A stretch of 59,096 nt of DNA from a virus. Taxonomy: Duplodnaviria; Caudoviricetes. The position numbers were made by a program, and so were the translations under genes. Where the stretch lies: IMG/VR virus record IMGVR_UViG_3300017782_000016, positions 1-59,096 of that record; one strand, 5' to 3'. This document shows, piece by piece, positions 3 through 56,439 of this stretch; position 1 is the first letter of the stretch; the number at the start of each line of letters is the position of its first letter. The notes under the pieces were generated by a model. That model did no database searches. It was not told the origin of the DNA and saw only the letters and a list, made by a program, of their open reading frames with translations.

Positions 3-269
3 TCAGAGGAAGCTGAAGAGGTTTCAGAAAACGAAACTTCAGAAGAAGCAGTCGAAGAAACTGAAACTCAAGCGGAAGCAGAAATAATGGAGACTCCTGT
101 TGACAACGATCCAGTAGATGAAATAACACCACATTCAAATGTAGAAAGTAACGATGCTGGAGGATTTGAAGATATCCCTCAAGTAGAAACACCATTTTTT
201 GATAACCCTAGTGTGAGACCAGTATCACCAGTGTCGTCAAACAACCAATCAATATCACCAACAACATAA
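3..269 (+). CDS. 5'-truncated acidic (Glu-rich) hypothetical protein, C-terminal part
   Basis: Frame of ORF 87..269 is open back to the window start (SEEAEEVSENETSEEAVEETETQAEAEIM...); stop overlaps next start (TAATG). Confidence 0.75.
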   Translation, partial: SEEAEEVSENETSEEAVEETETQAEAEIMETPVDNDPVDEITPHSNVESNDAGGFEDIPQVETPFFDNPSVRPVSPVSSNNQSISPTT

Positions 270-577
270 TGGAATTAGATTTCACAGAACAAATTAAGAG
301 TAACGCCAGTCTTTGGGAGAATATCCGCAAAAAGAAAGAGCGTATTAAACGAGGCTCACCAGAAAAAATGCGTAAGCCTGGAGAAAAGGGTGCACCCACA
401 AAAGAGCAAATCGAAAGAGCTAAAGGTGAGGCAATGACCCCCGCCCAAAAGAAAAAGTTTATGAGGCTTGAAAAAGAGGTCTCATTAAAAGATTTCATAA
501 AAAAATATGGCGAAGAAAAAGGCAAAGCTATTTATTACGCAACACTCACAAAAATGGCTAAAGCTACGTGTAAATAA
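269..577 (+). CDS. Small basic protein with N-terminal MELDFT tag, putative internal head protein
   Basis: Lys/Arg-rich; SLWENIRKKKERIK...PGEKGAPT and KKYGEEKGKAIYYAT segments resemble phage internal-virion proteins; N-terminus shared with 46764..47759. Confidence 0.6.
   Translation: MELDFTEQIKSNASLWENIRKKKERIKRGSPEKMRKPGEKGAPTKEQIERAKGEAMTPAQKKKFMRLEKEVSLKDFIKKYGEEKGKAIYYATLTKMAKATCK
568..573 (+). promoter_or_regulatory. GTGTAA putative phage late promoter
   Basis: Hexamer 9 nt upstream of ATG 583; recurs before many genes. Confidence 0.65.
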
Positions 578-582
578 ATAAG

Positions 583-750
583 ATGATATCCGAAATACTA
601 AATCAATCCACAGGTGAACTTTTCAAGATGGCTTTATCGCTCGTCGGTATTACTTGCTTGATTTTGCACATACTACCTAAAAGCGAGAAAAAATCTGGCT
701 TCTTCGGATTCATACAAGAAATCATGAAATTTTTAAAAGCCAAAAAATGA
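583..750 (+). CDS. 55-aa single-TM membrane protein (not in ORF track)
   Basis: MISEILNQSTGELFKMALSLVGITCLILHILPKSEKKSGFFGFIQEIMKFLKAKK; preceded by GTGTAA; stop overlaps next start (ATGA at 747-750). Confidence 0.75.
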   Translation: MISEILNQSTGELFKMALSLVGITCLILHILPKSEKKSGFFGFIQEIMKFLKAKK

Positions 751-1415
751 AAAACCTAATTGCTACTCTCCTTTTCGCTACCACTACATTATCTGCCCTT
801 TCTCTGGAGCCACCAGACCTAACGCCAGATACAAGTTTAAATCTAACTTGGATGACCTTACAAAGTTTTGATTTAACCAAAAATCAAAATTATACAAGAC
901 CAGATGGAGAAGATTGGGGTTATGATGATGATGAATACTTCTACAATGTAGCAAAATTCAGTATTGAAACCCTTGGTACTTATTCAGTGCTCAATACATC
1001 TTTCAATGCAGATTATATAGGTGTAGACAGACAGTTCGGAGAAAATGAAACTTTACTACCTAACGGCACACCAGTTTGGATGAGAGACACAATGATTTAT
1101 ATTTATGATGATATATTTAATCCTTTGACACCAACAAATCCTTTATACTTTGCTGACAATGACGACTATGACGAGTACGAAGGCGAGTTAGAAGATGGTG
1201 ATTTATTGTTCTTTTTGGAATTAGATGATTTAGAGATAGATACAGAATATTATGCAGTTATTACAACTTATGAACCTAAAGTTGCTGGAGATGGCTGGAT
1301 GATGATTACTGGTCCAGGTGCAGTATCAATTGATATCATTCCAGAGCCTGCTTCGTATGCTTTGATGATTGGATTTGCATCATTCCTTTACATAGCGATC
1401 AAACGCCGTAAATAA
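747..1415 (+). CDS. PEP-CTERM sorting-domain protein (secreted, surface-anchored, very acidic)
   Basis: N-terminal signal peptide MKNLIATLLFATTTLSA; C-terminus IPEPASYALMIGFASFLYIAIKRRK = PEP motif + TM helix + basic tail. Confidence 0.9.
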   Translation: MKNLIATLLFATTTLSALSLEPPDLTPDTSLNLTWMTLQSFDLTKNQNYTRPDGEDWGYDDDEYFYNVAKFSIETLGTYSVLNTSFNADYIGVDRQFGENETLLPNGTPVWMRDTMIYIYDDIFNPLTPTNPLYFADNDDYDEYEGELEDGDLLFFLELDDLEIDTEYYAVITTYEPKVAGDGWMMITGPGAVSIDIIPEPASYALMIGFASFLYIAIKRRK

Positions 1416-1421
1416 GTGTAA
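1416..1421 (+). promoter_or_regulatory. GTGTAA putative late promoter
   Basis: 8 nt upstream of ATG 1430, inside inverted repeat TAAGTGT-AAAA-ACACTTA. Confidence 0.7.
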
Positions 1422-1429
1422 AAACACTT

Positions 1430-2299
1430 ATGGCAAGTGAAGGCGGAGACGAATATATAATCCTAAGTAAATTTGGTAGTGACACTACTCATCTTCTAAC
1501 TGGCGTACAAGATGTTTCGTTTAGCCAAAACGTTCAAGAAGAATCTGTAATGTTATTAGGTACAGATCACACTGATTACAATATAACGGGCCCAACAACA
1601 ACTAATTTAACTTTTAGTAAAGTATTTGCTAATGACGATATTGTCGACTCTACATTAACGGGTCAACGCTTAAGTGGAGCCTTTGTATATGGTGATAGGG
1701 CAATGGTTTTTGATTTTAGTTACATTGTAGGTTATTCTATAAATGTAAATATGGGAGATGTGCCCAGACTGCAATGTTCCATAAATGTTTTAGGGGACTT
1801 AAGTGGAGACAGCAGTAATGGTAACTTGTCTCATGTACAAGATCACTTTTTAAAACCAGCGTTAAAAGAAACACCAATGGAGTTGATTCCACAAACAGGA
1901 ATTAACATCACTTATGATAAATCAACAACGTTAGACCAAGTACAAAGTTTTTCTTTATCTAGGGCTTTTCCTTGGGATCCTTACTATCGTATAGGTTCTT
2001 TAGGTCCAGCTCAAGCTGTTTTAAATGGACCTATTTCTGAAGAGGTGTCTATAGATTTTGAAGTCGAAGATTATGTATTTGAAAATAAAACTGGATATAA
2101 TTCTTCAGCACCTGGTGCAAGCACAATTAGAAACAGTAATGAAATCAGCTTATCTATTTCATCAACAACTGGACTTTTGAAAACATACACGGTAAATAAT
2201 CACAGATTAGTTTCAGAAAACATATCAACCAGAGTTTCAGATACTCCAATAGCATCTTTAACATATAGAGGAATTCGCCCTGGAATCAGACCAAACTAA
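1430..2299 (+). CDS. Putative minor tail protein, tail-tube-like paralog
   Basis: Beta-rich; internal duplication GVQDVSFSQ...LLG / QVQSFSLSR...YRIGS, as in 15416..16810. Confidence 0.55.
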   Translation: MASEGGDEYIILSKFGSDTTHLLTGVQDVSFSQNVQEESVMLLGTDHTDYNITGPTTTNLTFSKVFANDDIVDSTLTGQRLSGAFVYGDRAMVFDFSYIVGYSINVNMGDVPRLQCSINVLGDLSGDSSNGNLSHVQDHFLKPALKETPMELIPQTGINITYDKSTTLDQVQSFSLSRAFPWDPYYRIGSLGPAQAVLNGPISEEVSIDFEVEDYVFENKTGYNSSAPGASTIRNSNEISLSISSTTGLLKTYTVNNHRLVSENISTRVSDTPIASLTYRGIRPGIRPN

Positions 2300-2307
2300 T
2301 AAAATAG

Positions 2308-2313
2308 GTGTAA
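2308..2313 (+). promoter_or_regulatory. GTGTAA putative late promoter
   Basis: 9 nt upstream of ATG 2323. Confidence 0.7.
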
Positions 2314-2322
2314 TAAATATAT

Positions 2323-3156
2323 ATGGCATACATAAGTTTTAGGGATTTACCAATTTACATAGCGGCTGGCGACAACGCCTTAGCAGAAGGAGAAAGCAGT
2401 TCATTAATGGTTCACGCTAACCAAGGTTCTATTTCATACACTCCTAATGTACAATCAACTAGACTTTTAGGTCAAACACCAGATGCTGGTAAAGATTATT
2501 TAATCGCTGGACCATTTTCTGCGAGTTTATCATTTTCTTTCTTTTTAAAAAATGGTGAATTTATACCTACTGCTCATACTGGTGATAGTAAGCTGTCCTT
2601 TGCGTTTGGAGATAAAGATGGACTAAGGGGTACTAACATGTATTTAAATTCATTTTCTTATACGTTAGCGCCATATGCACCCGTGCAAGTTAATTGTGAG
2701 TTTGGCATATACTCAAAACCAGAAGGGAAAATAGCATCAGTTGGCACTACTAATCTAGGACCACAACCAGGCGCAGCTGCTAGTAGTCAATATGCACACG
2801 GAGCATATTCTACTCTTACTAATCCAGTCGCAGGTACATTAACAGTCGAAAATGCGGCTTATCAATTTACAACAAGTAGACAACCAGTATACGCAATCGG
2901 AGCACTAACTCCAAGTGAAGTTTTACAATTAACTGCAGAACATCAAGTTAGTATAGCGGGAGATAACATTGACGCACTCGTAGGAGTCGGCGGAGTTGAG
3001 GAAGGAGCTGCAGTTTTAGATTTAAAAGCTCCATCTGCTCCCACCGTTACAATTATGAAATCAACTGTCAATGGTATAGTTACTGCACAAACTATGAATG
3101 CAAGTGCTGGAGGAGTAGCTCAAGGCACTACTACTATACAACAATCCTTGTTGTAG
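2323..3156 (+). CDS. Putative minor tail protein, tail-tube-like paralog
   Basis: ANQGSISYTP...LLG / VENAAYQFTTSRQPVYAIG duplication matching the tube-like family. Confidence 0.55.
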   Translation: MAYISFRDLPIYIAAGDNALAEGESSSLMVHANQGSISYTPNVQSTRLLGQTPDAGKDYLIAGPFSASLSFSFFLKNGEFIPTAHTGDSKLSFAFGDKDGLRGTNMYLNSFSYTLAPYAPVQVNCEFGIYSKPEGKIASVGTTNLGPQPGAAASSQYAHGAYSTLTNPVAGTLTVENAAYQFTTSRQPVYAIGALTPSEVLQLTAEHQVSIAGDNIDALVGVGGVEEGAAVLDLKAPSAPTVTIMKSTVNGIVTAQTMNASAGGVAQGTTTIQQSLL

Positions 3157-5221: not shown

Positions 5222-6134
5222 ATGTAAAGAGTGCGGAGAAGAGTTTGACTCAGAAAAAGCGTTACATGCACATATAAAAAAGCATGGTTTTTATGTTGCG
5301 GATTATTATGTACAACATTATCCAAGATATAATAAACTAACTGGCGCACCAATACAATTTAAAAACAAAGATCAATACTTCAACACAGACTTTGCAAGAC
5401 GAAGTCAAATGAAGGAATGGTGCAAAACATCTGATCAAGACGAAGTAAAACAATACATACTGAAAGTATTAGCCGAAAGAGTGATTAGAAAAAAATGGGA
5501 ACACACACCCTCTTATGTTGAGCTCTACAAAGCGAAATTGCCAGACATCAGTATATACAAAAAACATTTTGGTTCTTATACCAAGGCGTCACAAGAGATA
5601 GGTTTAGAACCGCTATTTAATCAGCATTTGACGAAGAAATTCTTTGACGACTATAATGAAAAAATATTTATAGATACAAGAGAACAACAACCACTATATT
5701 TCAAAAACAGCGAATCTTTAAAATTAGCTTTCGGTGATTATACATTATCTGGAGATAAATTTACAAATACGTTTGTAGATAGAAAAAGCGCGACAGATTT
5801 TATAGGGACTTTCGGTAACGGATTCAAAAGATTCCAAAGAGAAATGCAGAGATGTGTGGAAGTGGATTGTTATATGTATATTGTTGTAGAAAAAAGCATT
5901 AAGGCAATATATAAAGATTATTTTCCTGGTAAAAGGTTATCAACCTTGAATTGGGCTTTTTCCAACATGGTCAAGCTTCAACATCAGTTTGCTGGAAACT
6001 GTCAATTCATATTTACCGAGAATAGAACGCAGAGCGAAATAATTATACCTAAGTTATTGGCATTGGGTAAAGAGCTTTGGGAAACTGACATGCAATATTA
6101 CATAGAAGAAGAAAATGTCTTGGGAGACAGGTAA
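5208..6134 (+). CDS. C2H2 zinc finger + ERCC4/XPF-type nuclease domain protein
   Basis: YKCKECG...LHAHIKKH; IDTREQQP...GDY...VDRKS..DF ERCC4 motifs; likely start ATG 5208/5211 rather than 5160. Confidence 0.8.
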   Translation: MMSYKCKECGEEFDSEKALHAHIKKHGFYVADYYVQHYPRYNKLTGAPIQFKNKDQYFNTDFARRSQMKEWCKTSDQDEVKQYILKVLAERVIRKKWEHTPSYVELYKAKLPDISIYKKHFGSYTKASQEIGLEPLFNQHLTKKFFDDYNEKIFIDTREQQPLYFKNSESLKLAFGDYTLSGDKFTNTFVDRKSATDFIGTFGNGFKRFQREMQRCVEVDCYMYIVVEKSIKAIYKDYFPGKRLSTLNWAFSNMVKLQHQFAGNCQFIFTENRTQSEIIIPKLLALGKELWETDMQYYIEEENVLGDR

Positions 6135-7968
6135 TCAAAAACCCCTTAAAAGGGAAAATGTTAATCAACAAGTTTTAGAACTTGAGGGATACCTTGAGGA
6201 CAATAAAGCTAAATATTGGTTGTACAAATTTCTTAAAGATAACATTACGTTTTCAACGCAATTACTTACTGGTATAGAATTGTTTCCGTTTCAACACATG
6301 GCAGTTAAGGCTATGATGGAGAATGATTATTTTCTAGGGGTGTGGTCGCGTGGTATGTCAAAATCCTTTTCTACGGGTATTTTTGCGCTTTTGGACGCAT
6401 CTCTGAACCAAGGGGTACATATAGGAATTATATCAAAGTCTTTTAGGCAGTCAAAAATGATCTTTAGAAAGATAGAAGATATAGCTGCAGATAAAAAAGC
6501 CGAGTTGTTTCAACAATGCATAGGCAAAGTGACCAAGTCAAATGATGAGTGGTCTATGCAAATAGGTAAAAGCCGTATTACAGCTTTGCCTTTAGGTGAC
6601 GGTGAAAAACTTCGTGGTTTCCGTTTCCAAAGAATTATTATTGACGAGTTATTGCTCATGCCAGAGAAAATTTATAATGAAGTTATTATGCCGTTCTTGG
6701 CTGTTGTTGAAAACCCAACAGAAAGACAAAAGATTAAAGATGCTGAAGATGAAATGATAAAGTTAGGTAAAATGACAGAAGAAGAAAGAACTGAGTGGCC
6801 AAGTAATAAAATGATAGGACTTTCATCTGCGTCTTACAAGTTTGAGTATTTATATAAGCTATATCAAGCATATGAGAATATGATATTTAATCCTGGAGCA
6901 AAAAACCAAGGTAGAAGATGTATTATGCAGTTTTCTTATGATGCGGCACCTAAAGCTTTGTATGATGAAAACTTAATTAGCCAAGCTAGGGGTTCTATGA
7001 GTCAGTCTCAAATTGATCGAGAGTTTAATGCTATATTTACTGATGATAGCGCAGGTTACTTTAAAATTAGTAAGATGGCCGATTGCACGATTGTGGATGG
7101 AGAATCTCCCTGTGTTGAAGTAGCAGGCGATCCAGATGCAGAATATATCATGGCGTTTGACCCATCGTGGTCCGAATCTGAAACATCTGATGATTTTGCT
7201 ATACAAGTCCTTAAATTAATGCCTCAAGAAAAGAAAGCTGTTGTGGTGCACAGTTATGCTTTACCAGGAACAAATCTAAAGAAGCACATAATATATTTCA
7301 AATACATATTAGAACACTTCAATATTATCATGATTGTAGGGGACTACAATGGTGGTGTACAATTTTTAAACTCAGCAAATGAAAGTGACATATTTAAACG
7401 AGCTAACTTACATATTGGCTGTTTTGATGCGGATTTTATAAACCCACAGAACTATGTATCAGATTTAAAAGAAGCCAGAAGACAATATAATGTTTCTAGT
7501 CGTGTGATATGTAATTTACGTAAACCAACATCTCAATGGATCAGAAACGGAAACGAAATGTTACAAACTTCTTTTGATAGAAGAAAATTATACTTTGCAG
7601 CCACAGCCATGGATGATAACTATTCGTTACAGAAATCCAAAAAAATACCTATCAAGGATTTAAAGTTTTCTAAATACGAAGACGAAAAGAATGTTGGCGC
7701 AAAAATGATAGAGTTTATAGAGCATCAAAAAGATATGCTAGACTTAACAAAAGCAGAATGTGCGCTTATACAGGTTACAACCTCCGTAGGAGGCACACAA
7801 AACTTTGACTTACCACCTAATTTAAAAAGACAAAAGGGAGCAGATAGACCTAGAAAGGACTCTTATTCTGCTTTAGTGCTTGGAAACTGGGGCATGAACA
7901 TATATTACGACATGATGGACATACCTTTAGACAATAATATTGGCTTTACTCCAATGTTTATTAATTAA
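6115..7968 (+). CDS. terL: Terminase large subunit
   Basis: LFPFQ Q-motif, SRGMSKS Walker A, IIIDE Walker B, AFDPS nuclease Asp, KDSYSAL C-terminal motif; upstream of portal. Confidence 0.93.
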   Translation: MSWETGNQKPLKRENVNQQVLELEGYLEDNKAKYWLYKFLKDNITFSTQLLTGIELFPFQHMAVKAMMENDYFLGVWSRGMSKSFSTGIFALLDASLNQGVHIGIISKSFRQSKMIFRKIEDIAADKKAELFQQCIGKVTKSNDEWSMQIGKSRITALPLGDGEKLRGFRFQRIIIDELLLMPEKIYNEVIMPFLAVVENPTERQKIKDAEDEMIKLGKMTEEERTEWPSNKMIGLSSASYKFEYLYKLYQAYENMIFNPGAKNQGRRCIMQFSYDAAPKALYDENLISQARGSMSQSQIDREFNAIFTDDSAGYFKISKMADCTIVDGESPCVEVAGDPDAEYIMAFDPSWSESETSDDFAIQVLKLMPQEKKAVVVHSYALPGTNLKKHIIYFKYILEHFNIIMIVGDYNGGVQFLNSANESDIFKRANLHIGCFDADFINPQNYVSDLKEARRQYNVSSRVICNLRKPTSQWIRNGNEMLQTSFDRRKLYFAATAMDDNYSLQKSKKIPIKDLKFSKYEDEKNVGAKMIEFIEHQKDMLDLTKAECALIQVTTSVGGTQNFDLPPNLKRQKGADRPRKDSYSALVLGNWGMNIYYDMMDIPLDNNIGFTPMFIN

Positions 7969-21153: not shown

Positions 21154-21176
21154 GTGTAATTATCCTATATAGGATA
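21154..21176 (+). promoter_or_regulatory. GTGTAA promoter plus 16-bp palindrome TATCCTATATAGGATA covering RBS/start
   Basis: GTGTAA 21154-21159; perfect palindrome 21161-21176. Confidence 0.6.
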
Positions 21177-24100
21177 TGGCTAACGCAAAAATAGGAATAG
21201 ATTTTGATCCAGTAAGAACCCAAAAGGTTGAGGCAGCTTTAAGACGCATACAAGCTCAAGCTAAAGGTGTTGATTTTGGCGGAGGAGCAAGATCCCTAGA
21301 TAAGTTGTCCAGACCACTTGGTAAAATTACTGGTCAAGCCAATGAATTCCAAAAATCCTTAGAAGCATCCAATGCTCGTGTTTTAGCTTTCGGAGCTTCA
21401 GTTTTAGTTATTAATAAACTTTCAGAAGCCTTTCAACAGCTTGTTAATAATACAATTAAAGTTGAAGCCGCTTTCACTAAGATAGGAATTATTTTAGACG
21501 GCACCGCTCAAGACTTGCAAAAATTTGGTGATGGTATATTTAGAGTAGCCCAAAAAACTGGTAACGCATTTGATGAAGTTGCCGAGGGAGCCTTAGAGTT
21601 GGCACGTCAAGGTTTAAGTGTTGAGGAATCTTTATCAAGAGTTGAAACAGCTCTAAAATTGGTTAGAGTAGCTGGTATTGACTCACAGAAAGCAGTGGGT
21701 GGTTTAACAGCTGCTATCAAAAACTTTGAGGGTGCTGGTCTCACTGTAGCAGAAATAGCAGATAAGATTGCAGAAGTTGATACAAAATTCGCTACGTCAA
21801 CAGATGATTTAATAGATGGTCTTAAAAGAGCCTCTGCATCTGCCCAGGTAGCTGGAGTTAGTTTTGATGAATTGCTTAGTGCAATTACGGTTGTAGAAGA
21901 AAGAACTCAACGTGGCGGTGCTGTTATAGGTAATGCTTTCAAAACAATCTTTGCCAGGATAAGACGTACTGATGTTTTAGACGCTTTAAAAAGTGTCGGA
22001 ATAGAAGTGTTAAACACAGAAGGTAATATCAGAGGAGCTATACCACTTATTCAAGATTTAGGTGTTGTTTTAGAAGAGGTTGGTATGCGAAGCGAAGCAG
22101 CTGGTAAACTGATTGAAAAGGTTGCTGGTGTTAGGCAGGGAGATATTTTAATTAATTTAATTAGAGATTTGCAATCTGGACAAAGTCAATTTGCAAAATC
22201 TTTACAAGTATCGGCAGGCGCCTTTGGCTCTTTAGATAAAAAGAATGCTGAATATAATAAAACACTTGACGCCACAATTAATAAATTAACCGTTGCTGGA
22301 CAAAAACTAGCATTTACTGTTGGAGAAACTGGATTTGCTGATGCCGCTAAAAATTTAATAAATACTTTTGAGGGTGCAGTCACTAGAATTACCGATGTTT
22401 TAGATGGAGATACAATAGGTGGCAAGTTTGCTAGAGGATTGATCAAGGGTATTGGAAACGTTTTAACTGGCCCTGGTTTGGCTTTGGTGGGTGCGATATT
22501 TATAAAGCTATTTAAAGACTTAGCTGTTTTTGGTTTAGATTCGTTAAAAACGTTGCTAGGGGTAAATAGGGCAGCCAAAGAACAAGCTCTTCTACAACAA
22601 TCTGTTTTACAAACATTAGTATCTAATCAAGCTATACAAGCACAGATTTTAAAACTAGAGGGCGACAAGGTTGCTCAAGAACAATTACTTTTACAAATAT
22701 ATAATCAACAAGCTGCCGCTTTACAAAGGGTTCAAAATATTGCAAAGAATGTAAGCCCTGGTTTATACGGAGCTGGACTTCGTGGTGGAGCTGGTGGTGT
22801 AGAAAGAGCAAGTGGCAAAGCTTCTGGAGGATACGTTGCTGGAGAAGCTAGAGATGTTTCTAGGGGTGTAGGCGGAGCTTCACCAAGTTCTAAAGTTGTA
22901 TCAATTCCAAATTTTGCATTTGGTGGTGGACAACGAGGAACTATGATAGCAAATTCTAGTGAGTATTATGTTCCAAACTATGCTGGTGGAGGCGATGCTA
23001 TATTTAACCAAAATATGGTAAAGTCAATGGGTTTACCATCTGGCGCTAAAAAACTTAGGGGCGCTAATGGATTCATTCCTAATTTTGCTCTGAAAGGCAG
23101 TTCAGATTATTTTTATAACCTTAGAAGAAAAGAAGCAAACGGTCAAAAATTATCAGCAGAAGAGCAAAAAGATTTAAAAGCTTATTACTCTAAAAAGGGA
23201 TCCACACTAGTTATGGATGCGTCTAATCAACTTGGTGTTGCATCTATATTTCCAGGTGGAGCCAAGGCTAACACAAGCACTACAAAATTATCTGGACCAG
23301 AAAAAGCTATTCTTAAAGGAGCTTATCCAGACAGCAATATAAAAAGAGTTGCTTTAAATAATATACAAGTTAGATCTTTAGAAAATGTAGAAAAAAGTTT
23401 AAAGTCAGAAAGAGCTGATAGAAATTTAATTTCTAAATTATTTTCTGGCCCAACATATGATTACGGATCTCAGTTAATGGATTTCTTTAATAACGATGAA
23501 AGATCCAAGACATTAAACGCAATGAAGAAAAGAACGAAAGGTCCAAGTTTATTTTCTTCTGCAGTTATGGGTGGTATTTTTGAAAGCGCTGTTAGATTGG
23601 TGACTAGAGGAGCGGCAGGGATTACAGACTTTGATAGCAACTTGGGTGATCAAACACCTTTTGACTTTGAAGAAGGTCGTGCAGCGACATCAAGATTTAA
23701 CAAAAGATTTGGATTTACCCCAAATGTATTTAAGGCTGATGCTAAAAGAACGTCTACGCCAGAAGCAATTAGAAGTATAATTGGTAAAAGCATTAGAGAT
23801 AAAAATGTTTTCGGAAGGTTAAACAAAACTATGTCGGCAGCTTTTGGTTACATACCAAATTTTGCAGATCCATTGTCAGACGCGATAGAAAGAGAAAAAG
23901 CTGCTGGTGTTCCAATTAATCAAATTAGAATTAATCAAAGCAGTAAAGTTAGAAACGGGCAAAACCCATTAGGTTTAGCTGTAACAAATACAAGGGATGA
24001 ACCTACTGGTGCTATACCAAACTTCGCTGCCAAACCTGGAGGTACAGGAGGCGAAATGGGAATGGATAAAGCTTTTGGTTTAATTTTGATTTCTCAAGTA

Positions 24101-27100
24101 GCTGGCGGTTTTGCTCAATCTTTAACACAAGGTAATGCTCAACTTGAAAAATTTACAACTGGGTTAATGAATGGTATTACAACCTTTGCAACACTAACTT
24201 TATTAAATGAGCCAATTAAAAAAGGTATAGAAAATTTAAAAGGTTTTGCAGAGGGTTTGCAATCACAAACCGTTACTGGTAAGTATGGTGGCACAAGAAC
24301 ATTTAGGGGTAAAGCTCCAGGTGTAGGAGGAGCTCTAAGTAAAGTAGCCGCAGGAGCAAGTAGATTACTTGGGCCAGCTGCTATAGCAGCTTCTGTAGCT
24401 CCTTTGATTTTAGAATTAACAAAAGTTAAAGACAAGTTTGGTGAATTAAATTCGGCTTTAAGTAATTTAAAAATAAACGACTTTGCAAATGGAACAGATG
24501 CTTCTTTAAAAGCTGTAATATCTGGGACAAGAGCCCAAATAGACTATAACCGTTCTTTAGATCAAGCTGCAAATAGATCGGGCGTAGATAGAAGAGGAGC
24601 TTTTGGCGGCAAAAAAAATGAGGATAAAGTATTGCAGCAAATAGCTAAATCAGCATTACAGTCGGGATCAAATAGACAATCAGCAGCAGGTACAGGAATA
24701 ATAAATAGATTAGGTAAGGACGATTTAACTAATCTAGGAAAAATTGCAACAATAACAAATCAAGAAGGCGCAAATATAGGTGAAGACATTTTAAGGCAAG
24801 CAAGAAGCAAAGCTACAACTGTAAGTGGCAATGCAAGGAATCAAAGGACCACGTTTGACGAAAACAGATTTAACGAAGAAATAGAAAAATTAGTACAAGC
24901 TGAACTTGATAAAAGACAACAAGCGGACGCTAAACAAACTTTAACTAAAGTAGGAGATAGAACAACATTTGATACTAGACAAGCTGGGTTACAAATTGAC
25001 TCAACAGCTTCTGCTTTAGGTCAACAAAGGCAAAGAACATTTCAAACAGAAATAGCTAAACTTGATAAAGAACTTCTTGGAGACGGAGGAAGAGGTGTTA
25101 CTCGAGAAAGACAAAATCAAATTGAAATTCAAAAGCAAGAACTTGCACTGAGTAAAGAAATAGAACAACAAAGACTTGGTATTGAGCAATCGTTTGCTAA
25201 AGAAGTTATTAATACCCAAAAACTCAATGATATACAAAAAGATAGTTTAGATTCTATATTAAAACAAGTAGATGGAAAAGGTACAATAGCAGAATTAGAG
25301 CAAAAAATATTGACAGCTTTATATGGAGAAGGTGAGGCAACAAGTGTTCAAAAAGCCGCTGTTAAAAAGATAGCGGAAAATTATCAAAACCAAGAAACCA
25401 CTATTACTGACATTCAAACAACAAGAGCGAGTCAAATTGAAAATGAAAAAGAGCTGCTTGAACTTAATGAAGACAATTTAAAAATCGAAGAAGAAAGATT
25501 AAAAACTTTCCAACAAGAAATTACAGAATTAGAAAAAAAAATAGCTAAAGAACAACAATCCAACGCTTTAGCGAAAGAAAGAAATCAAAATGTCTTAAGA
25601 GAAAGTCGAGGCAAACTTTCACCTCAAGCAAAAAGACAACTTGTTTATGAAGAACAAATAAATGGCTTTAACGAAGAAAAAGTCAGAGCGGAAGTTCGTC
25701 TAACAAAAGCCCAAGCAGACAAACAGTTTTACTTAGATAATGAAGTTAATCAAAATGCCGCAAAATTACAAAGTTATAGTGCTTCAATAGATGCAGCTCA
25801 ACAAGAGTTGGAAGCAGTTATAGCATTGAATGAAGAAAGAAAAAAGGGTTCAGAATTTGACAAAGACAGAACAGCATATGATCAATATATAGAAAGTGTT
25901 AATCAAAGACTTGCTGGAATGTCAGAACAAATGCCAGTTACATTAAGTCAAAATTTAGAAAATGGACTTATGAAAGCTATGGATACAGTAGCAAGAGAAG
26001 GTGTTGATGGTATTGGAAAAGCATTAGGAGATATTGCACTAGATTTTGGTAGAGAGATACAAAGACAACTAATGCAAAAAGCCGCAGATACACTTGTATC
26101 TAGTATTGGTAGTACTGGCGTTCTTAAAAATATTAGCGAATCCCTGGGATTTGCTTCTGGTGGTATGGTTAGTGGAGGTGGTGGCATTAAAGACGACGTT
26201 CCCGCAATGCTCACTAGTGGAGAATATGTTGTTAGAAAATCAGCTGTACAAAAATATGGAACCGCGTTTTTAGATTCTCTAAATAGCGGAAGCATGGGAG
26301 GATACAATAAAGGAGGGCCAGTTGAACAAGGAATGCCCGAATATAATGGCGGAAAATTCTGGGATAATCCAGGGGGTAATGTGTTAGGTGGATCTTTATC
26401 TAACGAAAGACTTAAAAAAGCATTAGCAAAAGAATATTTTACACCAGGAACAGAAAGGGGTGACACAACATTTGGAAGAATTGAAAGTAAGGAAGCTTTG
26501 TTAGCGTTTTCTATGCAAAATGTGACCAGTGGTTCAACAGACATTATAAGTTCTGGTTCGGTTAATTTAGAAACACAAAGTAAAAGATTATCTACATTAG
26601 CTAGAATGCGAGACACTCCAGAAAGAAGACAACTCAAAGAGGCTCAAAAGCAAGCGTTTGAAATTTTCTTAGCTCAAGTTGCAGATGAAAGAGCTGTAAT
26701 AGAAGAAAACAAACAAGCTAAAAAACAAAGAGACGATATGTTTAAGGCACAAATCCAAGGTGCATTTGTTAATTCGCTTATTAGTGCTGGAGCAGCTGGT
26801 TTGGGTAATACGATGAAGGGCGGAGATTTCTTTGGTAAAAAGGTTGACCCAACACTAGGTGCTAAAGGCCTTAAGACGGACACTGGATTCAATATGGGTA
26901 ACCTTGGTGATAGATTTATTGATAATAGTGGTGATGTTGTAACACTAACTCAAACAGGTAAAGATATGGTAGGCACCATTAATTACATGAATGAATTAGG
27001 AATGGATACTGCGGCTTTCACAGACACTTTGTCTAGAAGATACGCTGGAAAAGCAACTGGCGGACCGATTGGAACAAAAATGAACGCTATGTTAACTGCT

Positions 27101-27433
27101 GGTGAATATGTCGTGGGTAGAGATTCTGCTAAAGCTATTGGCACAGATACTTTAGATGATATTAATGCCATGAATTTCCAAAACGGTGGAAGTGTTGGAT
27201 CTCCAGTTATGAAAAAAACAGGTGGTAGTGGTGGTAATGTAGGATCTATTAATATTACTGTTAATGTTGATAAGAGCGGATCTACTACACAAACTCAAAG
27301 CACTAGCGGAGGTAGCGCAGCAGATGAAGAAGCTGGAGGAAAAGGATTAGCAGAAAGAATAAGATCAACTGTTGTTAATGTTATTAACGAAGAAAAAAGA
27401 GTATCTGGTTCACTGTTTACAAGAAGTAAGTAA
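21176..27433 (+). CDS. Tail tape measure protein (TP901-type core)
   Basis: 2085 aa; ELARQG, GAVIGNAFKTIFARI core motifs; coiled coils; FASGG...DDVPAMLTSGEYVV C-terminal motifs. Confidence 0.93.
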   Translation: MANAKIGIDFDPVRTQKVEAALRRIQAQAKGVDFGGGARSLDKLSRPLGKITGQANEFQKSLEASNARVLAFGASVLVINKLSEAFQQLVNNTIKVEAAFTKIGIILDGTAQDLQKFGDGIFRVAQKTGNAFDEVAEGALELARQGLSVEESLSRVETALKLVRVAGIDSQKAVGGLTAAIKNFEGAGLTVAEIADKIAEVDTKFATSTDDLIDGLKRASASAQVAGVSFDELLSAITVVEERTQRGGAVIGNAFKTIFARIRRTDVLDALKSVGIEVLNTEGNIRGAIPLIQDLGVVLEEVGMRSEAAGKLIEKVAGVRQGDILINLIRDLQSGQSQFAKSLQVSAGAFGSLDKKNAEYNKTLDATINKLTVAGQKLAFTVGETGFADAAKNLINTFEGAVTRITDVLDGDTIGGKFARGLIKGIGNVLTGPGLALVGAIFIKLFKDLAVFGLDSLKTLLGVNRAAKEQALLQQSVLQTLVSNQAIQAQILKLEGDKVAQEQLLLQIYNQQAAALQRVQNIAKNVSPGLYGAGLRGGAGGVERASGKASGGYVAGEARDVSRGVGGASPSSKVVSIPNFAFGGGQRGTMIANSSEYYVPNYAGGGDAIFNQNMVKSMGLPSGAKKLRGANGFIPNFALKGSSDYFYNLRRKEANGQKLSAEEQKDLKAYYSKKGSTLVMDASNQLGVASIFPGGAKANTSTTKLSGPEKAILKGAYPDSNIKRVALNNIQVRSLENVEKSLKSERADRNLISKLFSGPTYDYGSQLMDFFNNDERSKTLNAMKKRTKGPSLFSSAVMGGIFESAVRLVTRGAAGITDFDSNLGDQTPFDFEEGRAATSRFNKRFGFTPNVFKADAKRTSTPEAIRSIIGKSIRDKNVFGRLNKTMSAAFGYIPNFADPLSDAIEREKAAGVPINQIRINQSSKVRNGQNPLGLAVTNTRDEPTGAIPNFAAKPGGTGGEMGMDKAFGLILISQVAGGFAQSLTQGNAQLEKFTTGLMNGITTFATLTLLNEPIKKGIENLKGFAEGLQSQTVTGKYGGTRTFRGKAPGVGGALSKVAAGASRLLGPAAIAASVAPLILELTKVKDKFGELNSALSNLKINDFANGTDASLKAVISGTRAQIDYNRSLDQAANRSGVDRRGAFGGKKNEDKVLQQIAKSALQSGSNRQSAAGTGIINRLGKDDLTNLGKIATITNQEGANIGEDILRQARSKATTVSGNARNQRTTFDENRFNEEIEKLVQAELDKRQQADAKQTLTKVGDRTTFDTRQAGLQIDSTASALGQQRQRTFQTEIAKLDKELLGDGGRGVTRERQNQIEIQKQELALSKEIEQQRLGIEQSFAKEVINTQKLNDIQKDSLDSILKQVDGKGTIAELEQKILTALYGEGEATSVQKAAVKKIAENYQNQETTITDIQTTRASQIENEKELLELNEDNLKIEEERLKTFQQEITELEKKIAKEQQSNALAKERNQNVLRESRGKLSPQAKRQLVYEEQINGFNEEKVRAEVRLTKAQADKQFYLDNEVNQNAAKLQSYSASIDAAQQELEAVIALNEERKKGSEFDKDRTAYDQYIESVNQRLAGMSEQMPVTLSQNLENGLMKAMDTVAREGVDGIGKALGDIALDFGREIQRQLMQKAADTLVSSIGSTGVLKNISESLGFASGGMVSGGGGIKDDVPAMLTSGEYVVRKSAVQKYGTAFLDSLNSGSMGGYNKGGPVEQGMPEYNGGKFWDNPGGNVLGGSLSNERLKKALAKEYFTPGTERGDTTFGRIESKEALLAFSMQNVTSGSTDIISSGSVNLETQSKRLSTLARMRDTPERRQLKEAQKQAFEIFLAQVADERAVIEENKQAKKQRDDMFKAQIQGAFVNSLISAGAAGLGNTMKGGDFFGKKVDPTLGAKGLKTDTGFNMGNLGDRFIDNSGDVVTLTQTGKDMVGTINYMNELGMDTAAFTDTLSRRYAGKATGGPIGTKMNAMLTAGEYVVGRDSAKAIGTDTLDDINAMNFQNGGSVGSPVMKKTGGSGGNVGSINITVNVDKSGSTTQTQSTSGGSAADEEAGGKGLAERIRSTVVNVINEEKRVSGSLFTRSK

Positions 27434-30129: not shown

Positions 30130-33100
30130 ATGAGCGATAATTCACAACGACCAGTCATAGGATATGAAAATATAGCATTATTCCAAGGGAATAGTGATGC
30201 AAATCTTACTGGATCTAATAGTGGAGACGCACTAAAGTTTATTCCTCAAGTTCAAAATTTATCGTTTAGTTTTAGCAACAATCAAGTAAATATAAATGGT
30301 TTGGGATCAAAGAAAACTTTAATTAACCAAAATACTTTAGCCCCAGATATTAGATTGAATATTTCTAAGGTAGAAGATTTTGAAAATGATTTATTCTCTA
30401 CTTTAATACCTTATGGAGATTTTAAAGATGGCGATTTAAATAAGGACAGAAATTTTTATGCAATTATTGGAGATATTAAAGGGTCTGATGTTTCATCTAA
30501 AACTTTGTCTGGCAAAAATGTAATTAGTTTTGGTAATTGTTTCCTAGAGAATGTAACATTAACACAGGATGCTAATGCTATGTTGATGTCCAACTATTCT
30601 TTTGTGGCAAGCAATATACAAGCTCAAACATTTTCTCCTAGAGTAATTTATCATAATAGTTTTGAACAATTGCAAACTGGGGATTATAGCCCATATTATG
30701 GTGGTGGAACTGTTGAAGCAAAAGATTTAGAAGATAGTATTGGATTATTAAGAATAACAAATCACGGAATACAAGGCGCTATTGGAACAGGAGAAGGTAT
30801 TGTACTTTCTGATCAAGACACAAAAGCTAGAGGGTATGAAACTGTCACTGGATTTAGGAGTTTGGCTATATATGATGGGGCTATAATTAACGGTATTGCT
30901 TTTCATAATAAAACTGGAGACGGTCTTTCTTTACCTACTGATGAATATTATCATAGTGGCAATCTATCAACTGGGATATTTAATACAAATTCTATATATG
31001 AAGTTACTGGTAACTTTAGAACTAATAATGATGCAGCGTATTTAGATATATTTTTCCAAACTGGTGATGGAATATCTTCCAATAATTTACACGCCACTGT
31101 AAGAAAGACTATTAAACCTAATTTAACAACTAGAACAGACGATCACGCTGGAACTTATATTTCAACACCATTCAGTGTTACTGGAAGTTTTAATCCAGAT
31201 CATTATGGAGCCGTCAAGGGTTCTGGCGCTCCAAGTGGTTGTATAATGATAAGTTCTAGGAAACTAAATGGTTACGGTGGATTAACAGGAATTAAAGTAG
31301 AACCAAGAGATTCAACTTATAAATATGTATCTGTACCAGGTGGCATTACATTTGAAAACGCATTTAATCAAGCTGTCCAAAACCATAACGGAAGATTAGC
31401 TGTCATAGATACATTAGAAAAATTTCACAAATTTACTGGCACGTTTGCAAACGATGCAAAGGATCAGTCTATATTGGCAAATGGTTGGGTGGCATTAACT
31501 GACAGTGAGTCTTATGGGGCATCAGAAAGTAACGCAGAATCAACATTGGCGTTAAAAAGAGCTAAATTTAAATGGTCAAACGGTGTTGAAAATATATTCA
31601 CGGATGATATTTATTGGAATGATTTAGAGCCTAATAATGCTGGCGGTTTAGAAGATTTTATTCATTTTAGAGGTACTACTTTAACACCATCGACCACTGA
31701 AGGTGTGCCAGCAACCGCTTCATCTGGACCGTGGAATGATTTAAATGCAACTAGCACAACACCTACGGGTTTTTATATAGAGCAAATTAATTCAGCTGTA
31801 TTTATATCTGATTTGACTATTAGAAAATTGGATGAATTCCAACTAGACGCACCGTCTATAGATTTAACTGGGCCACAAATACAAAACACTACAGGTTATT
31901 TTAACGAGTTAAACACTTACTACAAAAGTCCTGCAAAAAACTTTTCTAAGGGTAAAAATACAAAAATAGTAATAAAGAAAAAAAATGAAGGAACAATAGT
32001 ATTTAAAGATAATTTCGCTAGTGGTATAGTTGATAATGATTATGCTGTAGCGCCAAGTGGTGTTGAGGGTTTTTCTTTTTCACGGTTATTCCATAATGGT
32101 TTAAATTCAGAAGCTGGAGATGAAGTAACCACAGGTATCAACAGAGCAGATTTCTTTAATCAGACTCAAGGTAATCCAGCAATACAATCTTCACCACCAT
32201 CTTTGGAAATAAAAATTAATGTTGGAGACACAGGTTTTGCTTATGGAAACCCAAGTAGTGTTTACAGTGGCGCTAAAGCAGCTGCTGTAAGAATTGGTCA
32301 AGATATAATAGGTGGAGGAAATAATGGAACTGGTTTTAAGGCTAGTGGAAATTACATTTTACAAGGTGAATTTAGGGTTTCTATGCCTGGTGGATATACT
32401 GGAGCTGTTGCGAGAGTTGATATTTCTGATTACGAATCACATAACACACCACAAGTGACTCCTGGTGGTTTAATGGGAGATGGATTTGCAACACAATCAC
32501 AAACATTTGTTCCGTTTGATATGAGAATAACTGGTTTTAACCAGAGAGACGCAAGAACTAGTGGTAATTTTAAGTGGTTTGATCTTACTGTTTTCAGTCA
32601 AAAGGGTGGTTTCCCTAATGCTCAAACATTAAATCCTCCTTCGCCAGATGGATCAACATCTTTTACAAATTTTTTAAATTCTGGATCTTGTGCCGCTCAA
32701 TTTAGAAACATAACAGTAAGAGAAGTTCAAAACTTTGAAGAAGAAAACTTTTTGTTTGAGACTGATACTGTACAAAATTTTGATATAACTTTACCTGTTG
32801 AAAGAAAATCTGTATATCAAATTGGCAACAAATATCCAAGCAAAAGAAAAAGGCTTTATCCAAATAATTGTGAAATTAGTCTTGCGGCTTTAGTGTCAAA
32901 CATTAACAAAGAAAATGAAACTGAATACGAAAGATATTTAACAGTAGACTCTGCTAAGAAAACCACAACAGCTAATTTAAAAAGTTTTATAGAAGAAAAT
33001 GCAAAATACGAAATACTAATATCTGGTGTTGGCGACAATGATAAAAAATATTCTTTACATATAGATGATGCATATCTTACTGCACAAGATATATCAAGCT

Positions 33101-35085
33101 CTATGGATAATTTTTCTTTAGCTAATTTGTCTTTTGGTTTTGACATGCAAGATTTTAAAAACAAAAACTACTTAAACAATTTTGATGCTGCTAGAATATA
33201 TGTAGATAGAAAGAATGAAAGATGCGTGCCTAATACTGGAGGTTTAGAGGTATTTGATATATCGGACAAACCTTTAAACACACCTTATCCAGAGACAAGT
33301 ACAAATTTAAACTTCGCTCATCCAGAGGTCAGCCCAGGTGTGGCTAACTTAAGTTCGAGAAATGTTAGCGGTAAAGTGGGATTAAGTGAAGACGGTTTTG
33401 TTTTTGACCCATTGTATACTGCTGGCAAAGTTTATACTGATAAGACTTTAGATGGTAATCGTTACTATTTAAGTAATTTCTTTTCTACTGTAGGAGAAAG
33501 GAGTAATTTTGATTTTGTAAATGCTCCAATGTTACAATTCGCAAATGAAAGTAGTTTCCTTGATGATGGTGCTGCGGAATTAAATTCAGCCTTAACTTAT
33601 TTATTGTGGATAAAACCTTATACATTGCCTTATTTTCAAAGTAATACTTTTAAGAGTAAAAGTGCTAGTAGGTTATCTACTTTAATGAGTCAAGCTTTAA
33701 ACAATGAATCTAGGCCTAGATTTACCGTTGATAGTTTTGGCGCTCTTGGTTTTCAATCTTGGAGTATGCATGGTCAAGTTTTTACTGGCGACACTTTTAC
33801 AAATGCCAATGGTCGTCAAATACAAAGATTAGATATACCTAGAATTTTTGATACTGGTTCAAAAGTAGCCACAACTAGAATGCAGCTTTCTGGTAGTTCA
33901 ATAATAGCTAAAAGAGATGGAGTTGCGTATACTGATCAAAATGCTGGCACTAATACAAATTTCTCTGGAACAAGAGGTGCATCTGTTAATACATTTAAAT
34001 TTAGTTCAGAACAAGTAGTTCAAACTGGGGTCTGGCAACAAGTTGTTATGACCTTAGAAAACAGAACTGGTAGTTTAGGTATAGATCATAGTGATTTTGG
34101 AACAACATTACAGTTTTATCGCAACGACACTAAACTAAACACAATTGACATATTATCAACAAGATCAGAATATAATGGTGGTAGTACTAATTTTGCTACA
34201 AATGGTTTGATAGATTTAAGTGATCAAGCTAATTTTGGGGCAAATGCTTTACCTTCTAGTGGTATTGGTGTTATTCAAAATCTTGGTAGAGCAAGTGAAG
34301 GTTTTAGAATTGGTGGCACTTTTGCTGGTGATGAAGAACCTTACGATTTGTTTAAAGGTGAAATAGCGGTAGCAGCCGTATATAACAAGGCATTAACTCA
34401 TGAAGAAGTTAAAGATAATTACAATAGAATTAGACAAAGGTTTGATCACAAGGAAAGGTCAAATGCTAAAAGTATACAGGTTAGAAGGCAGGGTACTTTA
34501 TTCCAACCAGGAGCCAATAATTGCGAACTAAATGGAAGCGAATTGAAAGAAGATTATGTAACTTTTTTTGCTACTGAGTCTGATAGAGAATTTATGTTAG
34601 TTTATCTTGAAGAATCTGATTATTTAAATATTGAAGGTACATCTTTTGAAATAGAAAACGTAACTACAAATATTAATGGCACATATGTTTTTCACGGTCC
34701 TAACGATGCTTTTCCAGGTAATTTTGTTCATCAAGACCGTCCATCGTATAGATTTTTTAGAGATAAGAAAAAATGGAAATTCTATAATAGTGGCGTTACT
34801 ATTGAAGAAACAGCACGAATAAGAGGTAACAAGGTTTATGATGCTGACTATGACTTGGGTTCAGATGGCACTATAAGCAACAGGTATTCTATTGCAGAAT
34901 TTACTTCACCTCCTAATTTTGTAAATGTCGTTGAAGTTGAACCGTTAATTACAATAGATGAAGGTGAAGCTAAGATAGGCAAGGTGTATTATGAAAAAGA
35001 TGATGATAGTTTTAGATTTATAGTTTACGATATAAAATCAAATGTAAAAATAACTATCAATACAATAGACGCACAAAATAATTAA
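30130..35085 (+). CDS. Large tail protein: tube-like scaffold with inserted C-type lectin domain and C-terminal LamG-like domain
   Basis: QVQNLSFSF/TVQNFDITLPVER tube motifs; WVALTD..FKWSNG..EPNN..WND; WQQVVMT..FKGEIAVAAVYNKALTHEEV. Confidence 0.75.
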   Translation: MSDNSQRPVIGYENIALFQGNSDANLTGSNSGDALKFIPQVQNLSFSFSNNQVNINGLGSKKTLINQNTLAPDIRLNISKVEDFENDLFSTLIPYGDFKDGDLNKDRNFYAIIGDIKGSDVSSKTLSGKNVISFGNCFLENVTLTQDANAMLMSNYSFVASNIQAQTFSPRVIYHNSFEQLQTGDYSPYYGGGTVEAKDLEDSIGLLRITNHGIQGAIGTGEGIVLSDQDTKARGYETVTGFRSLAIYDGAIINGIAFHNKTGDGLSLPTDEYYHSGNLSTGIFNTNSIYEVTGNFRTNNDAAYLDIFFQTGDGISSNNLHATVRKTIKPNLTTRTDDHAGTYISTPFSVTGSFNPDHYGAVKGSGAPSGCIMISSRKLNGYGGLTGIKVEPRDSTYKYVSVPGGITFENAFNQAVQNHNGRLAVIDTLEKFHKFTGTFANDAKDQSILANGWVALTDSESYGASESNAESTLALKRAKFKWSNGVENIFTDDIYWNDLEPNNAGGLEDFIHFRGTTLTPSTTEGVPATASSGPWNDLNATSTTPTGFYIEQINSAVFISDLTIRKLDEFQLDAPSIDLTGPQIQNTTGYFNELNTYYKSPAKNFSKGKNTKIVIKKKNEGTIVFKDNFASGIVDNDYAVAPSGVEGFSFSRLFHNGLNSEAGDEVTTGINRADFFNQTQGNPAIQSSPPSLEIKINVGDTGFAYGNPSSVYSGAKAAAVRIGQDIIGGGNNGTGFKASGNYILQGEFRVSMPGGYTGAVARVDISDYESHNTPQVTPGGLMGDGFATQSQTFVPFDMRITGFNQRDARTSGNFKWFDLTVFSQKGGFPNAQTLNPPSPDGSTSFTNFLNSGSCAAQFRNITVREVQNFEEENFLFETDTVQNFDITLPVERKSVYQIGNKYPSKRKRLYPNNCEISLAALVSNINKENETEYERYLTVDSAKKTTTANLKSFIEENAKYEILISGVGDNDKKYSLHIDDAYLTAQDISSSMDNFSLANLSFGFDMQDFKNKNYLNNFDAARIYVDRKNERCVPNTGGLEVFDISDKPLNTPYPETSTNLNFAHPEVSPGVANLSSRNVSGKVGLSEDGFVFDPLYTAGKVYTDKTLDGNRYYLSNFFSTVGERSNFDFVNAPMLQFANESSFLDDGAAELNSALTYLLWIKPYTLPYFQSNTFKSKSASRLSTLMSQALNNESRPRFTVDSFGALGFQSWSMHGQVFTGDTFTNANGRQIQRLDIPRIFDTGSKVATTRMQLSGSSIIAKRDGVAYTDQNAGTNTNFSGTRGASVNTFKFSSEQVVQTGVWQQVVMTLENRTGSLGIDHSDFGTTLQFYRNDTKLNTIDILSTRSEYNGGSTNFATNGLIDLSDQANFGANALPSSGIGVIQNLGRASEGFRIGGTFAGDEEPYDLFKGEIAVAAVYNKALTHEEVKDNYNRIRQRFDHKERSNAKSIQVRRQGTLFQPGANNCELNGSELKEDYVTFFATESDREFMLVYLEESDYLNIEGTSFEIENVTTNINGTYVFHGPNDAFPGNFVHQDRPSYRFFRDKKKWKFYNSGVTIEETARIRGNKVYDADYDLGSDGTISNRYSIAEFTSPPNFVNVVEVEPLITIDEGEAKIGKVYYEKDDDSFRFIVYDIKSNVKITINTIDAQNN

Positions 35086-47759: not shown

Positions 47760-47783
47760 TTTTTTTATTATGCGGTTTAGTAT
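47756..47783 (+). promoter_or_regulatory. Sigma70-type promoter for glycosylation operon, leaderless
   Basis: TTGATT-N16-TAGTAT; second ATG (47790) lies 6 nt after the -10. Confidence 0.5.
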
Positions 47784-47786
47784 CGC

Positions 47787-56433: not shown

Positions 56434-56439
56434 TTAAAG

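Follow-up and report, generated by a model that had tools for sequence, protein, structure and literature searches.

A tailed-phage gene pair encoding a small membrane protein and a candidate exosortase substrate with a conserved PEP-CTERM-type tail

Introduction

Sorting of proteins by the PEP-CTERM/exosortase system is widespread, its biochemistry is poorly known, and to our knowledge it has so far been treated as a purely cellular system. Prophages of Gram-positive bacteria are known to encode substrates of the host LPXTG sortases, for example SasX of Staphylococcus aureus. The PEP-CTERM protein PepA (NF033554) is a flocculation-associated small secreted protein which is thought to act in the extracellular matrix, and PEP-CTERM genes are needed for floc formation (PMC9850573). 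Our full-text literature search (supplementary files apart) found no paper on a phage-encoded PEP-CTERM protein; the PEP-CTERM domain protein mentioned in the preprint 10.64898/2026.09.15.751708 belongs to a mobile element of Dehalococcoides that has virus-like features, and is unrelated in sequence context. Here we analyse a gene pair at positions 583 to 1,415 of IMG/VR virus record IMGVR_UViG_3300017782_000016 (Caudoviricetes), a stretch of 59,096 nucleotides which we refer to as the window. The second gene of the pair encodes a 222-residue protein with a PEP-CTERM-type tail, and we propose that it may be a phage-supplied client of a host exosortase.

A conserved PEP-CTERM-type tail

The pair and its tail are laid out as follows:

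583-750 (+): gene for a small membrane protein of 55 amino acids, first of the pair
747-1415 (+): PEP-CTERM gene, 222 amino acids, second of the pair
747-750 (+): ATGA, the 4-base overlap of the small-gene stop and the PEP-CTERM start (translational coupling)
1338-1412 (+): PEP-CTERM-type sorting tail, residues 198-222 (IPEP, transmembrane helix, KRRK)

The tail opens with IPEP at residues 198-201, followed by a hydropathy peak at residues 202-219 that falls within a helix of the AlphaFold structural model (residues 201-221), and closes on a C-terminal KRRK. The PEP-CTERM model aligns at the extreme C-terminus (residues 198-222 of 222) over the whole of its 24 positions. Homologues of the 222-residue protein numbered 53, apparently all of them metagenomic, and the few that carried source names were marine (Tara). 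Across the 19 relatives that were aligned, which share 47-88% identity overall, P199 and E200 are invariant (19/19) and P201 is retained in at least 90%, within an alignment that holds 57 invariant columns, mostly in the cargo domain that precedes the tail. PF07589 matched 16 of 29 family or related proteins at E ≤ 1, three of the 29 scoring above the gathering threshold, and the TIGR02595 cut-off was exceeded in three of five related viral records. There was one TIGR02595 match in the window and at most one in each of the five related viral records, that is, no paralogues, and a single copy is what would be expected of a virus-borne gene. Judged from these alignments, the tail is predicted to be a real, conserved PEP-CTERM-type signal at the level of the family.

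N-terminus and cargo fold

The remainder of the protein divides into two parts:

747-803 (+): signal-peptide-like N-terminus, residues 1-19 (K2, hydrophobic core, A-L-S)
834-1337 (+): acidic beta-sandwich (jelly roll, PPC/C2-like), residues ~30-197, modelled at a pLDDT (predicted local distance difference test) of 75

A hydropathy heuristic underlies the signal-peptide call: it places a hydrophobic stretch at residues 4-20, where the model has a helix (residues 3-15) and then a disordered linker, and the start M-K-K-L-hydrophobic is conserved among the aligned relatives. Hydrophobic windows occur only at this N-terminus (starts 4-6) and at residues 202-219, with no membrane segment between them. 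The mature residues 20-197 have an isoelectric point of 4.05, with 38 D/E against 6 K/R, and include an acidic loop, DNDDYDEYEGELEDGD, at residues 137-152 and five N-x-S/T sites. The architecture described in the initial annotation, made from the sequence alone, of a signal-peptide-like N-terminus, an acidic domain and an IPEP/helix/KRRK tail is borne out by hydropathy, isoelectric point and model alike.

Foldseek returned no match to the cargo model at E ≤ 1e-3. VIA-align, with Z values that were only modestly above background, found a calpain C2-like domain (Z 10.1, root-mean-square deviation (rmsd) 3.0, 118 residues aligned), the Tk-SP jelly roll (Z 9.5), the ColG collagen-binding domain of the PPC type (Z 8.0) and LipL32 (Z 7.8). 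The 222-residue protein had no match to PF04151 (PPC) in a Pfam search at E ≤ 1, and profile searches of PDB sequences with the whole-protein alignment A1 and with alignment A7 returned nothing. Calcium occurs in the structures of several of the fold matches, the ColG domain having been crystallised in its presence and LipL32 being calcium-bound, and because several matches were solved with calcium it is a fair guess that the cargo also binds it. The part of the beta-sandwich spanning residues ~113-200 is found again, in tandem arrays of 2-7 copies, in long proteins (P0058, P0059, P0061 and P0068-P0070), some of which also carry NHL repeats or a seven-transmembrane domain; structurally similar clusters in the Atlas are assigned to Rotifera, and the domain family is apparently nameless.

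The gene pair and its upstream signal

The 55-residue product of the first gene has a single hydrophobic stretch (residues ~12-34 by hydropathy) and an amphipathic, basic C-terminus. It matched nothing in Pfam, NCBIfam or PHROG, and nothing in the Atlas above 0.87. Its position and length are kept in relatives down to 22% identity, it differs from its nearest relative by 28 synonymous and three nonsynonymous changes, and the ratio of nonsynonymous to synonymous rates (dN/dS) is ~0.05-0.1 where computable. Because its position and length are conserved and synonymous changes are in excess, the small open-reading frame (ORF) is a genuine gene under strong purifying selection. It lies 5' of the PEP-CTERM gene in 10/10 viral loci and in 20/20 metagenome loci with upstream DNA; among the related loci (here given L numbers), the 4-nt start/stop overlap recurs in L002, L003, L010 and L011, and a short gap separates the two genes in L004, L006 and L009. 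The predicted ATGA coupling of the PEP-CTERM gene to a 55-residue transmembrane ORF behind a GTGTAA motif is confirmed, the small ORF standing first and the PEP-CTERM gene second.

The motif brackets the pair:

568-573 (+): GTGTAA, 10 nt before the ATG of the small ORF
1416-1421 (+): next GTGTAA, 9 nt before the following gene (1430-2299), marking the end of the two-gene unit

Thirteen of the 18 plus-strand copies of GTGTAA in the window are found 9-24 nt before a plus-strand gene start, against an expectation of 0.41 (binomial P ~4e-18). Copies before plus-strand gene starts lie at 568, 1416, 2308, 7993, 14230, 19141, 21154, 38980, 41621, 45086, 45401 and 46750, and one minus-strand gene is preceded by the motif too (19128). 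The motif is often GTGTAAA, no Shine-Dalgarno sequence was seen between it and the start codon, and an extended form, GTGTAAATAAATAA, is confined to the four closest lineages (the window, L002, L003 and L011), where it precedes the small ORF, and is not present in L006, L009 or L010. A spacing so short and fixed suggests that the motif is a promoter for near-leaderless mRNAs, recognised by a phage sigma factor, or else an unusual signal for the initiation of translation, and the copy at 568-573 is probably the phage promoter or initiation signal of the two-gene unit. The motif also precedes candidate structural genes, the tape measure gene and the small subunit gene of ribonucleotide reductase (RNR); since genes of all classes carry it, it gives no information on timing. 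The earlier proposal that the pair appears wired into phage regulation, for which this motif is the only ground, was not substantiated. Beyond the second motif lie two conserved genes (1430-2299 and 2323-3156), each behind its own GTGTAA and with no match in Pfam, NCBIfam or PHROG, which diverge at the pace of the PEP-CTERM gene.

Phage context, distribution and mosaicism

The record is linear, has a GC (guanine plus cytosine) content of 34.5% and is estimated to be 37% complete in its IMG/VR entry. It carries two hallmark genes of phages:

6115-7968: TerL, the terminase large subunit
21176-27433: tape measure protein, 2,085 amino acids

Further phage genes in the window encode RNR, SSB, a sigma-like factor and a deoxynucleoside monophosphate kinase, and the window is clearly a fragment of a tailed phage, not a piece of a host. 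The length of the tape measure protein implies a very long tail, and two very large ORFs at 30130-35085 (1,651 amino acids) and 41970-45080 (1,036 amino acids) have no family matches. TerL shares at most 29% identity with any GenBank phage (the best being Bacillus, Clostridioides and Lactococcus phages) and the RNR large subunit up to 63% with phages of Alphaproteobacteria and others, so the closest cultured-phage matches are uninformative as to the host. ARAGORN found no tRNA in the window. A tblastn search with the 222-residue protein against 50,697 GenBank phage records gave no match, and the tail alone hit only five Ralstonia phage records in GenBank, at a non-significant E of 4.

The same gene arrangement was found in 11 IMG/VR loci and 31 metagenome loci. 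DNA near-identical to positions 300-2300 occurs in 20 runs from 13 studies, all of them viral, seawater or marine metagenomes, and 13 of these runs contain half or more of the sampled words. A 1,092-base contig from an independent run spans positions 509-1592 and bridges the gene junctions, and the GC content of the pair is even with the rest of the phage.

Many of the relatives carry a third gene directly after the PEP-CTERM gene (19 of the 29 metagenome loci for which downstream sequence is available). This gene is missing from the window. Viral examples of it are:

L004, 809-1972: barrel gene
L006, 4651-5838: barrel gene
L009, 3316-4479: barrel gene
L010, 1548-2696: barrel gene

Its product of ~385 residues has a signal peptide and a C-terminal Phe, and the model (pLDDT 82) is an all-beta barrel with ~18-20 strands, resembling Occ/OprD porins and the alginate exporter AlgE (Foldseek E ~2e-8, template modelling score ~0.5). 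Matches to BBP2_2 are weak (E 0.01-0.03) and below all curated cut-offs, and NCBIfam gave none. Metagenomes supplied 96 homologues of this family, which lacks a Pfam assignment; one distant homologue carries PF10082.

Comparison of positions 269-3156 of the window with L124, L122 and L134 revealed a sharp mosaic boundary, with the genes before the cassette and TerL sharing 82-100% identity, and past it 49-51% in the PEP-CTERM protein and 26-34% in the two genes that follow. For example, L124 has a small ORF 100% identical to that of the window and upstream genes at 94-96%, with the PEP-CTERM protein at 51% and the next two genes at 29-34%, and in L134 TerL is 95% identical and the PEP-CTERM protein 49%. 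Phages further removed have the cassette in another gene neighbourhood. Compared with its surroundings the cargo changes much faster, by evolution or by exchange, a pattern characteristic of host-interaction or moron-type modules.

At 46764-57564 (+) there is a long cluster of genes for the synthesis and transfer of sugar nucleotides, which encodes a GDP-mannose 4,6-dehydratase, an NAD-dependent epimerase/dehydratase, two DegT-type aminotransferases, a methyltransferase, GT1 and GT2 glycosyltransferases and a DUF5824 protein. Such a gene set is indicative of modified glycans, whether on the surface of the host or on the virion; to tie it to the PEP-CTERM cargo, which has five N-x-S/T sites, would be speculation. 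By appearance the carrier is a large marine phage of the lytic type and not a temperate prophage of a pathogen, and the cluster and the PEP-CTERM pair together suggest a phage which invests heavily in altering the surface of its host.

Candidate host

No exosortase (PF09721) was found in the window, in agreement with the initial annotation, nor in five related viral records, all of which are fragments (14-37% complete). The tail therefore served as our guide to the host; in the case of a virus it is the host genome in which the presence of an exosortase matters. PEP-CTERM regions are far more alike within than between species, according to the relevant section of Haft et al. 2006 (PMC1569441), and tail flavour is on that account a reasonable host marker. 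A scan of 185,579 species genomes with a pattern from a three-sequence tail alignment returned 60 loci, whose titles assign 52 to Verrucomicrobiota, five to Gemmatimonadota and one each to Planctomycetota, Thermodesulfobacteriota and 'Legionellales'. The family profile matched 65 of 401 sampled Verrucomicrobiota at E ≤ 1e-3, by way of the tail only, the best being genome G433. Of 400 genomes sampled from a gammaproteobacterial class, the profile matched a single one at E ≤ 1e-4, on the contig treated next. The suggestion that the tail hints at the host group held up, pointing to Verrucomicrobiota and not to the Gammaproteobacteria sampled.

The best tail match of all lies on a contig of the 'Legionellales' metagenome-assembled genome (MAG), L013, which we rejected as a host clue. 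This 13 kb contig (35.5% GC) encodes a TonB-dependent receptor, two sulfatases and the PEP-CTERM protein, and is syntenic with, and 68-79% identical to, a contig of the Verrucomicrobiota genome G433. Within the order of the bin an exosortase was found in 0/31 genomes and a PEP-CTERM protein in 1/31, and within its class the tail was found in 1/400. Because of this synteny, and as an outlier in its own order and class, the contig is most likely mis-binned.

The family of G433 comprises 101 genomes, including G008, which is titled Coraliomargaritaceae. Seven genomes of 1.2-1.5 Mb in this family score 34-40 bits, and other matches in the family reach at most 32.2 bits. Loci of this small-genome clade have a GC content of 34-38% and tails such as VPEPSTYALIAGFAAFLFVAIRRRK, to be compared with IPEPASYALMIGFASFLYIAIKRRK in the phage. 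All six clade members tested (6/6) have one or two exosortase genes. G433 encodes at least seven PEP-CTERM proteins over the cut-off, and its main exosortase passes the exosortase/archaeosortase signature model and fits no named Xrt subtype. Going by the sequence of the tail, the host is likely to be one of the low-GC, small-genome marine Verrucomicrobiota, in the family that contains the record titled Coraliomargaritaceae. A further, P0063-type family, with another N-terminal domain and a near-identical tail, had no locus in the viral contigs.

Proposed mechanism and alternative explanations

Our favoured reading, to which we give a probability of about 0.6, is that the phage supplies the host exosortase with a true client. 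The pair would be read as a two-gene unit from the phage-specific GTGTAA signal. The 222-residue protein would presumably be exported by Sec, after which its C-terminal helix would retain it in the inner membrane and leave the PEP motif facing the periplasm. The host exosortase would then recognise and cleave the protein and pass it toward the surface or exopolysaccharide layer, as with the PEP-CTERM proteins of the host itself. An acidic, possibly calcium-binding beta-sandwich would suit a role in the surface matrix or in adhesion, and the surface of the infected cell might be altered such that further adsorption is blocked and other phages are excluded, the receptor masked or aggregation changed, as the initial annotation supposed. 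The co-translated 55-residue protein would be an obligate partner, perhaps a membrane chaperone or gatekeeper for the tail, and in most relatives the 18-strand outer-membrane barrel could serve to take the cargo across the outer membrane or to anchor it there. A dedicated route is suggested by the small partner, joined in relatives by the barrel. A fuller version, in which an abundant marine phage lineage carries a portable two- or three-gene surface-display cassette and the host exosortase places a fast-evolving, calcium-binding protein on infected Verrucomicrobiota, the tail acting as a barcode of the host, is tentative and, taken whole, somewhat doubtful.

A number of results weigh against exosortase sorting or against the proposed host. 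By hmmscan this copy scores 13.9 bits with PF07589 (cut-off 20.7) and 14 bits with TIGR02595 (cut-off 16), the latter rising to 17, above the cut-off, in a six-frame search. To call the tail 'canonical', as was done at the outset, was an overstatement, as the copy is under both curated cut-offs by hmmscan; failure with PEP-CTERM hidden Markov models (HMMs), which the initial annotation named as evidence against its own claim, is narrowly the case for this copy by hmmscan and is not the case for the family. TIGR02595 is itself short and unspecific, and in a control against 14 well-known genomes it gave matches at E ≤ 10 in 13, of which two exceeded the cut-off. PF07589 had no match at E ≤ 1 in 13 of the 29 family or related proteins, and one of the eight viral orthologues, that of L006, has PEL in place of PEP. 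An aromatic-rich membrane helix, of a type usual in low-GC genomes, seems to account for the low HMM scores, and a bona fide bacterial protein with the same type of tail, that of L013, is also below the Pfam cut-off, at 19.6 bits. The lack of an exosortase on the phage fragments counts on the same side. As to the host, no direct link to the phage was found: whole-protein patterns gave no relative of the cargo in the 185,579 species genomes, TerL was found neither in 301 genomes of the order of G433 nor in five clade members, and the barrel profile found nothing in the same 301 genomes. One barrel homologue bears the name of a Porticoccaceae MAG, the look-alike clusters in the Atlas include Pseudomonadota and Cyanobacteriota, and the family profile was applied to Verrucomicrobiota and the gammaproteobacterial class, not to other phyla. 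The likeness of the tails could come in part from a shared low-GC amino-acid bias, or the tail could have been captured long ago. A possible hint of transcription, contigs at 380-909 (530 bases) and 996-1146, is from a run whose RNA label is guessed and which may be DNA.

If the tail were a plain membrane anchor, the acidic domain would sit at the inner membrane facing the periplasm together with its 55-residue partner, where it might block DNA injection by other phages or regulate lysis; the PEP would be a relic of the host gene that furnished the tail, and an exosortase would play no part. The sub-threshold HMM scores of this copy, the orthologue with PEL, the tight coupling to a small membrane protein, the want of an exosortase on any phage fragment examined and a host that is unproven all fit this explanation. 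A bare anchor, however, would not need a P-E pair that is invariant in 19/19 relatives and a third P in at least 90% while the rest diverges to 47% identity; the tail also closely tracks the flavour of one exosortase-bearing clade, and the barrel in most relatives points beyond the inner membrane. We regard a plain anchor as unlikely, with some real chance of being right. Less probable again is that the protein is a decoy, a mimic substrate which stalls the sorting of host PEP-CTERM proteins and so weakens the surface layer or exopolysaccharide before lysis, or removes receptors. That the tail nearly reproduces tails of the host type, that each phage record has a single such gene and that the cargo diverges fast next to conserved flanking genes (L124 and L134) would agree with a decoy, but a pure decoy would not require a cargo that is well folded (pLDDT 75) and conserved (57 invariant columns), and the barrel gene in relatives suggests real export.

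A spanin-like or other lysis component appears very unlikely. The combination of an N-terminal signal and a C-terminal helix, with a small membrane protein alongside that recalls the holins, would fit such a role, and this topology is reminiscent of unimolecular spanins of the phage T1 gp11 type. There is, however, no Cys in residues 1-30, so no lipobox (Cys occurs there in one of the 19 aligned relatives), no endolysin adjoins the pair, the small ORF matches no holin family, and the PEP motif would be left unexplained. A misassembled host fragment or chimeric contig, which the initial annotation had named as what would overturn its claim, has as its sole argument that PEP-CTERM proteins are known from bacteria, and is contradicted by the recurrence of the gene order in the 11 IMG/VR and 31 metagenome loci, by the presence of 300-2300 across 13 studies, by the 1,092-base bridging contig and by the even GC; whole-protein patterns, moreover, have no relative in the 185,579 species genomes. 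We consider this explanation barely credible. That the pair is phage-borne, as first claimed, is upheld by TerL, the tape measure, RNR and SSB genes in the window and by the near-identical DNA and junction-spanning contigs.

Implications

If the protein is indeed an exosortase client, phages exploit the exosortase pathway, in parallel to the sortase substrates borne by prophages. Studies of exosortase recognition would also gain a natural substrate that is small and well folded and has a defined partner. The tail would become a new, testable host predictor for uncultured phages, leading in this case to a clade of streamlined marine Verrucomicrobiota, and would identify phages of the small-genome marine members of that phylum (the family of the record titled Coraliomargaritaceae). 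We know of almost no phages of streamlined marine Verrucomicrobiota.

Comparison with known systems

The phage tail is closest to the PEP-CTERM/exosortase (EpsH, Xrt) system (TIGR02595, PF07589), sharing in its last 25 residues the order of PEP, hydrophobic helix and basic cluster set out in the part of PMC1569441 that defines it. Its flavour is that of one exosortase-bearing lineage. Unlike the cellular PEP-CTERM proteins, the phage copy is encoded by a virus, is single in each genome, has no exosortase on the same fragments and scores at or below the HMM cut-offs; its gene also lies behind that of a co-translated 55-residue membrane protein and, in most relatives, before a barrel gene. The phage tail aligns to the end of the PepA model (NF033554; E 0.0018, 18.2 bits), but the score is far under the 80-bit cut-off, the alignment is restricted to the tail and the cargo domain is unrelated.

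The cargo resembles the PPC/collagen-binding and calpain C2-like domains (PDB 1nqd, 5sv5, 2qfe and 3afg) in its eight-stranded jelly roll (Z 8.0-10.1, rmsd 2.5-3.0, 92-118 residues aligned) and acidic loop, and PF04151 is present in 27-54% of the members of the look-alike clusters in the Atlas. It differs from them in sharing at most 11% sequence identity, and calcium binding by the phage cargo is inferred only. The barrel of the related phages models in the class of the Occ/OprD porins, AlgE (PDB 5dl8 and 8pz4) and BBP2_2 (PF10082), and departs from the Occ/AlgE systems in that the relatives' barrel is below curated cut-offs and the window is without the gene. The prophage-encoded LPXTG substrates operate in another envelope, with another signal and another enzyme family, yet the proposed arrangement would be the same in both cases: the virus supplies a surface protein, which is sorted by a transpeptidase-like enzyme of the host that reads a C-terminal signal.

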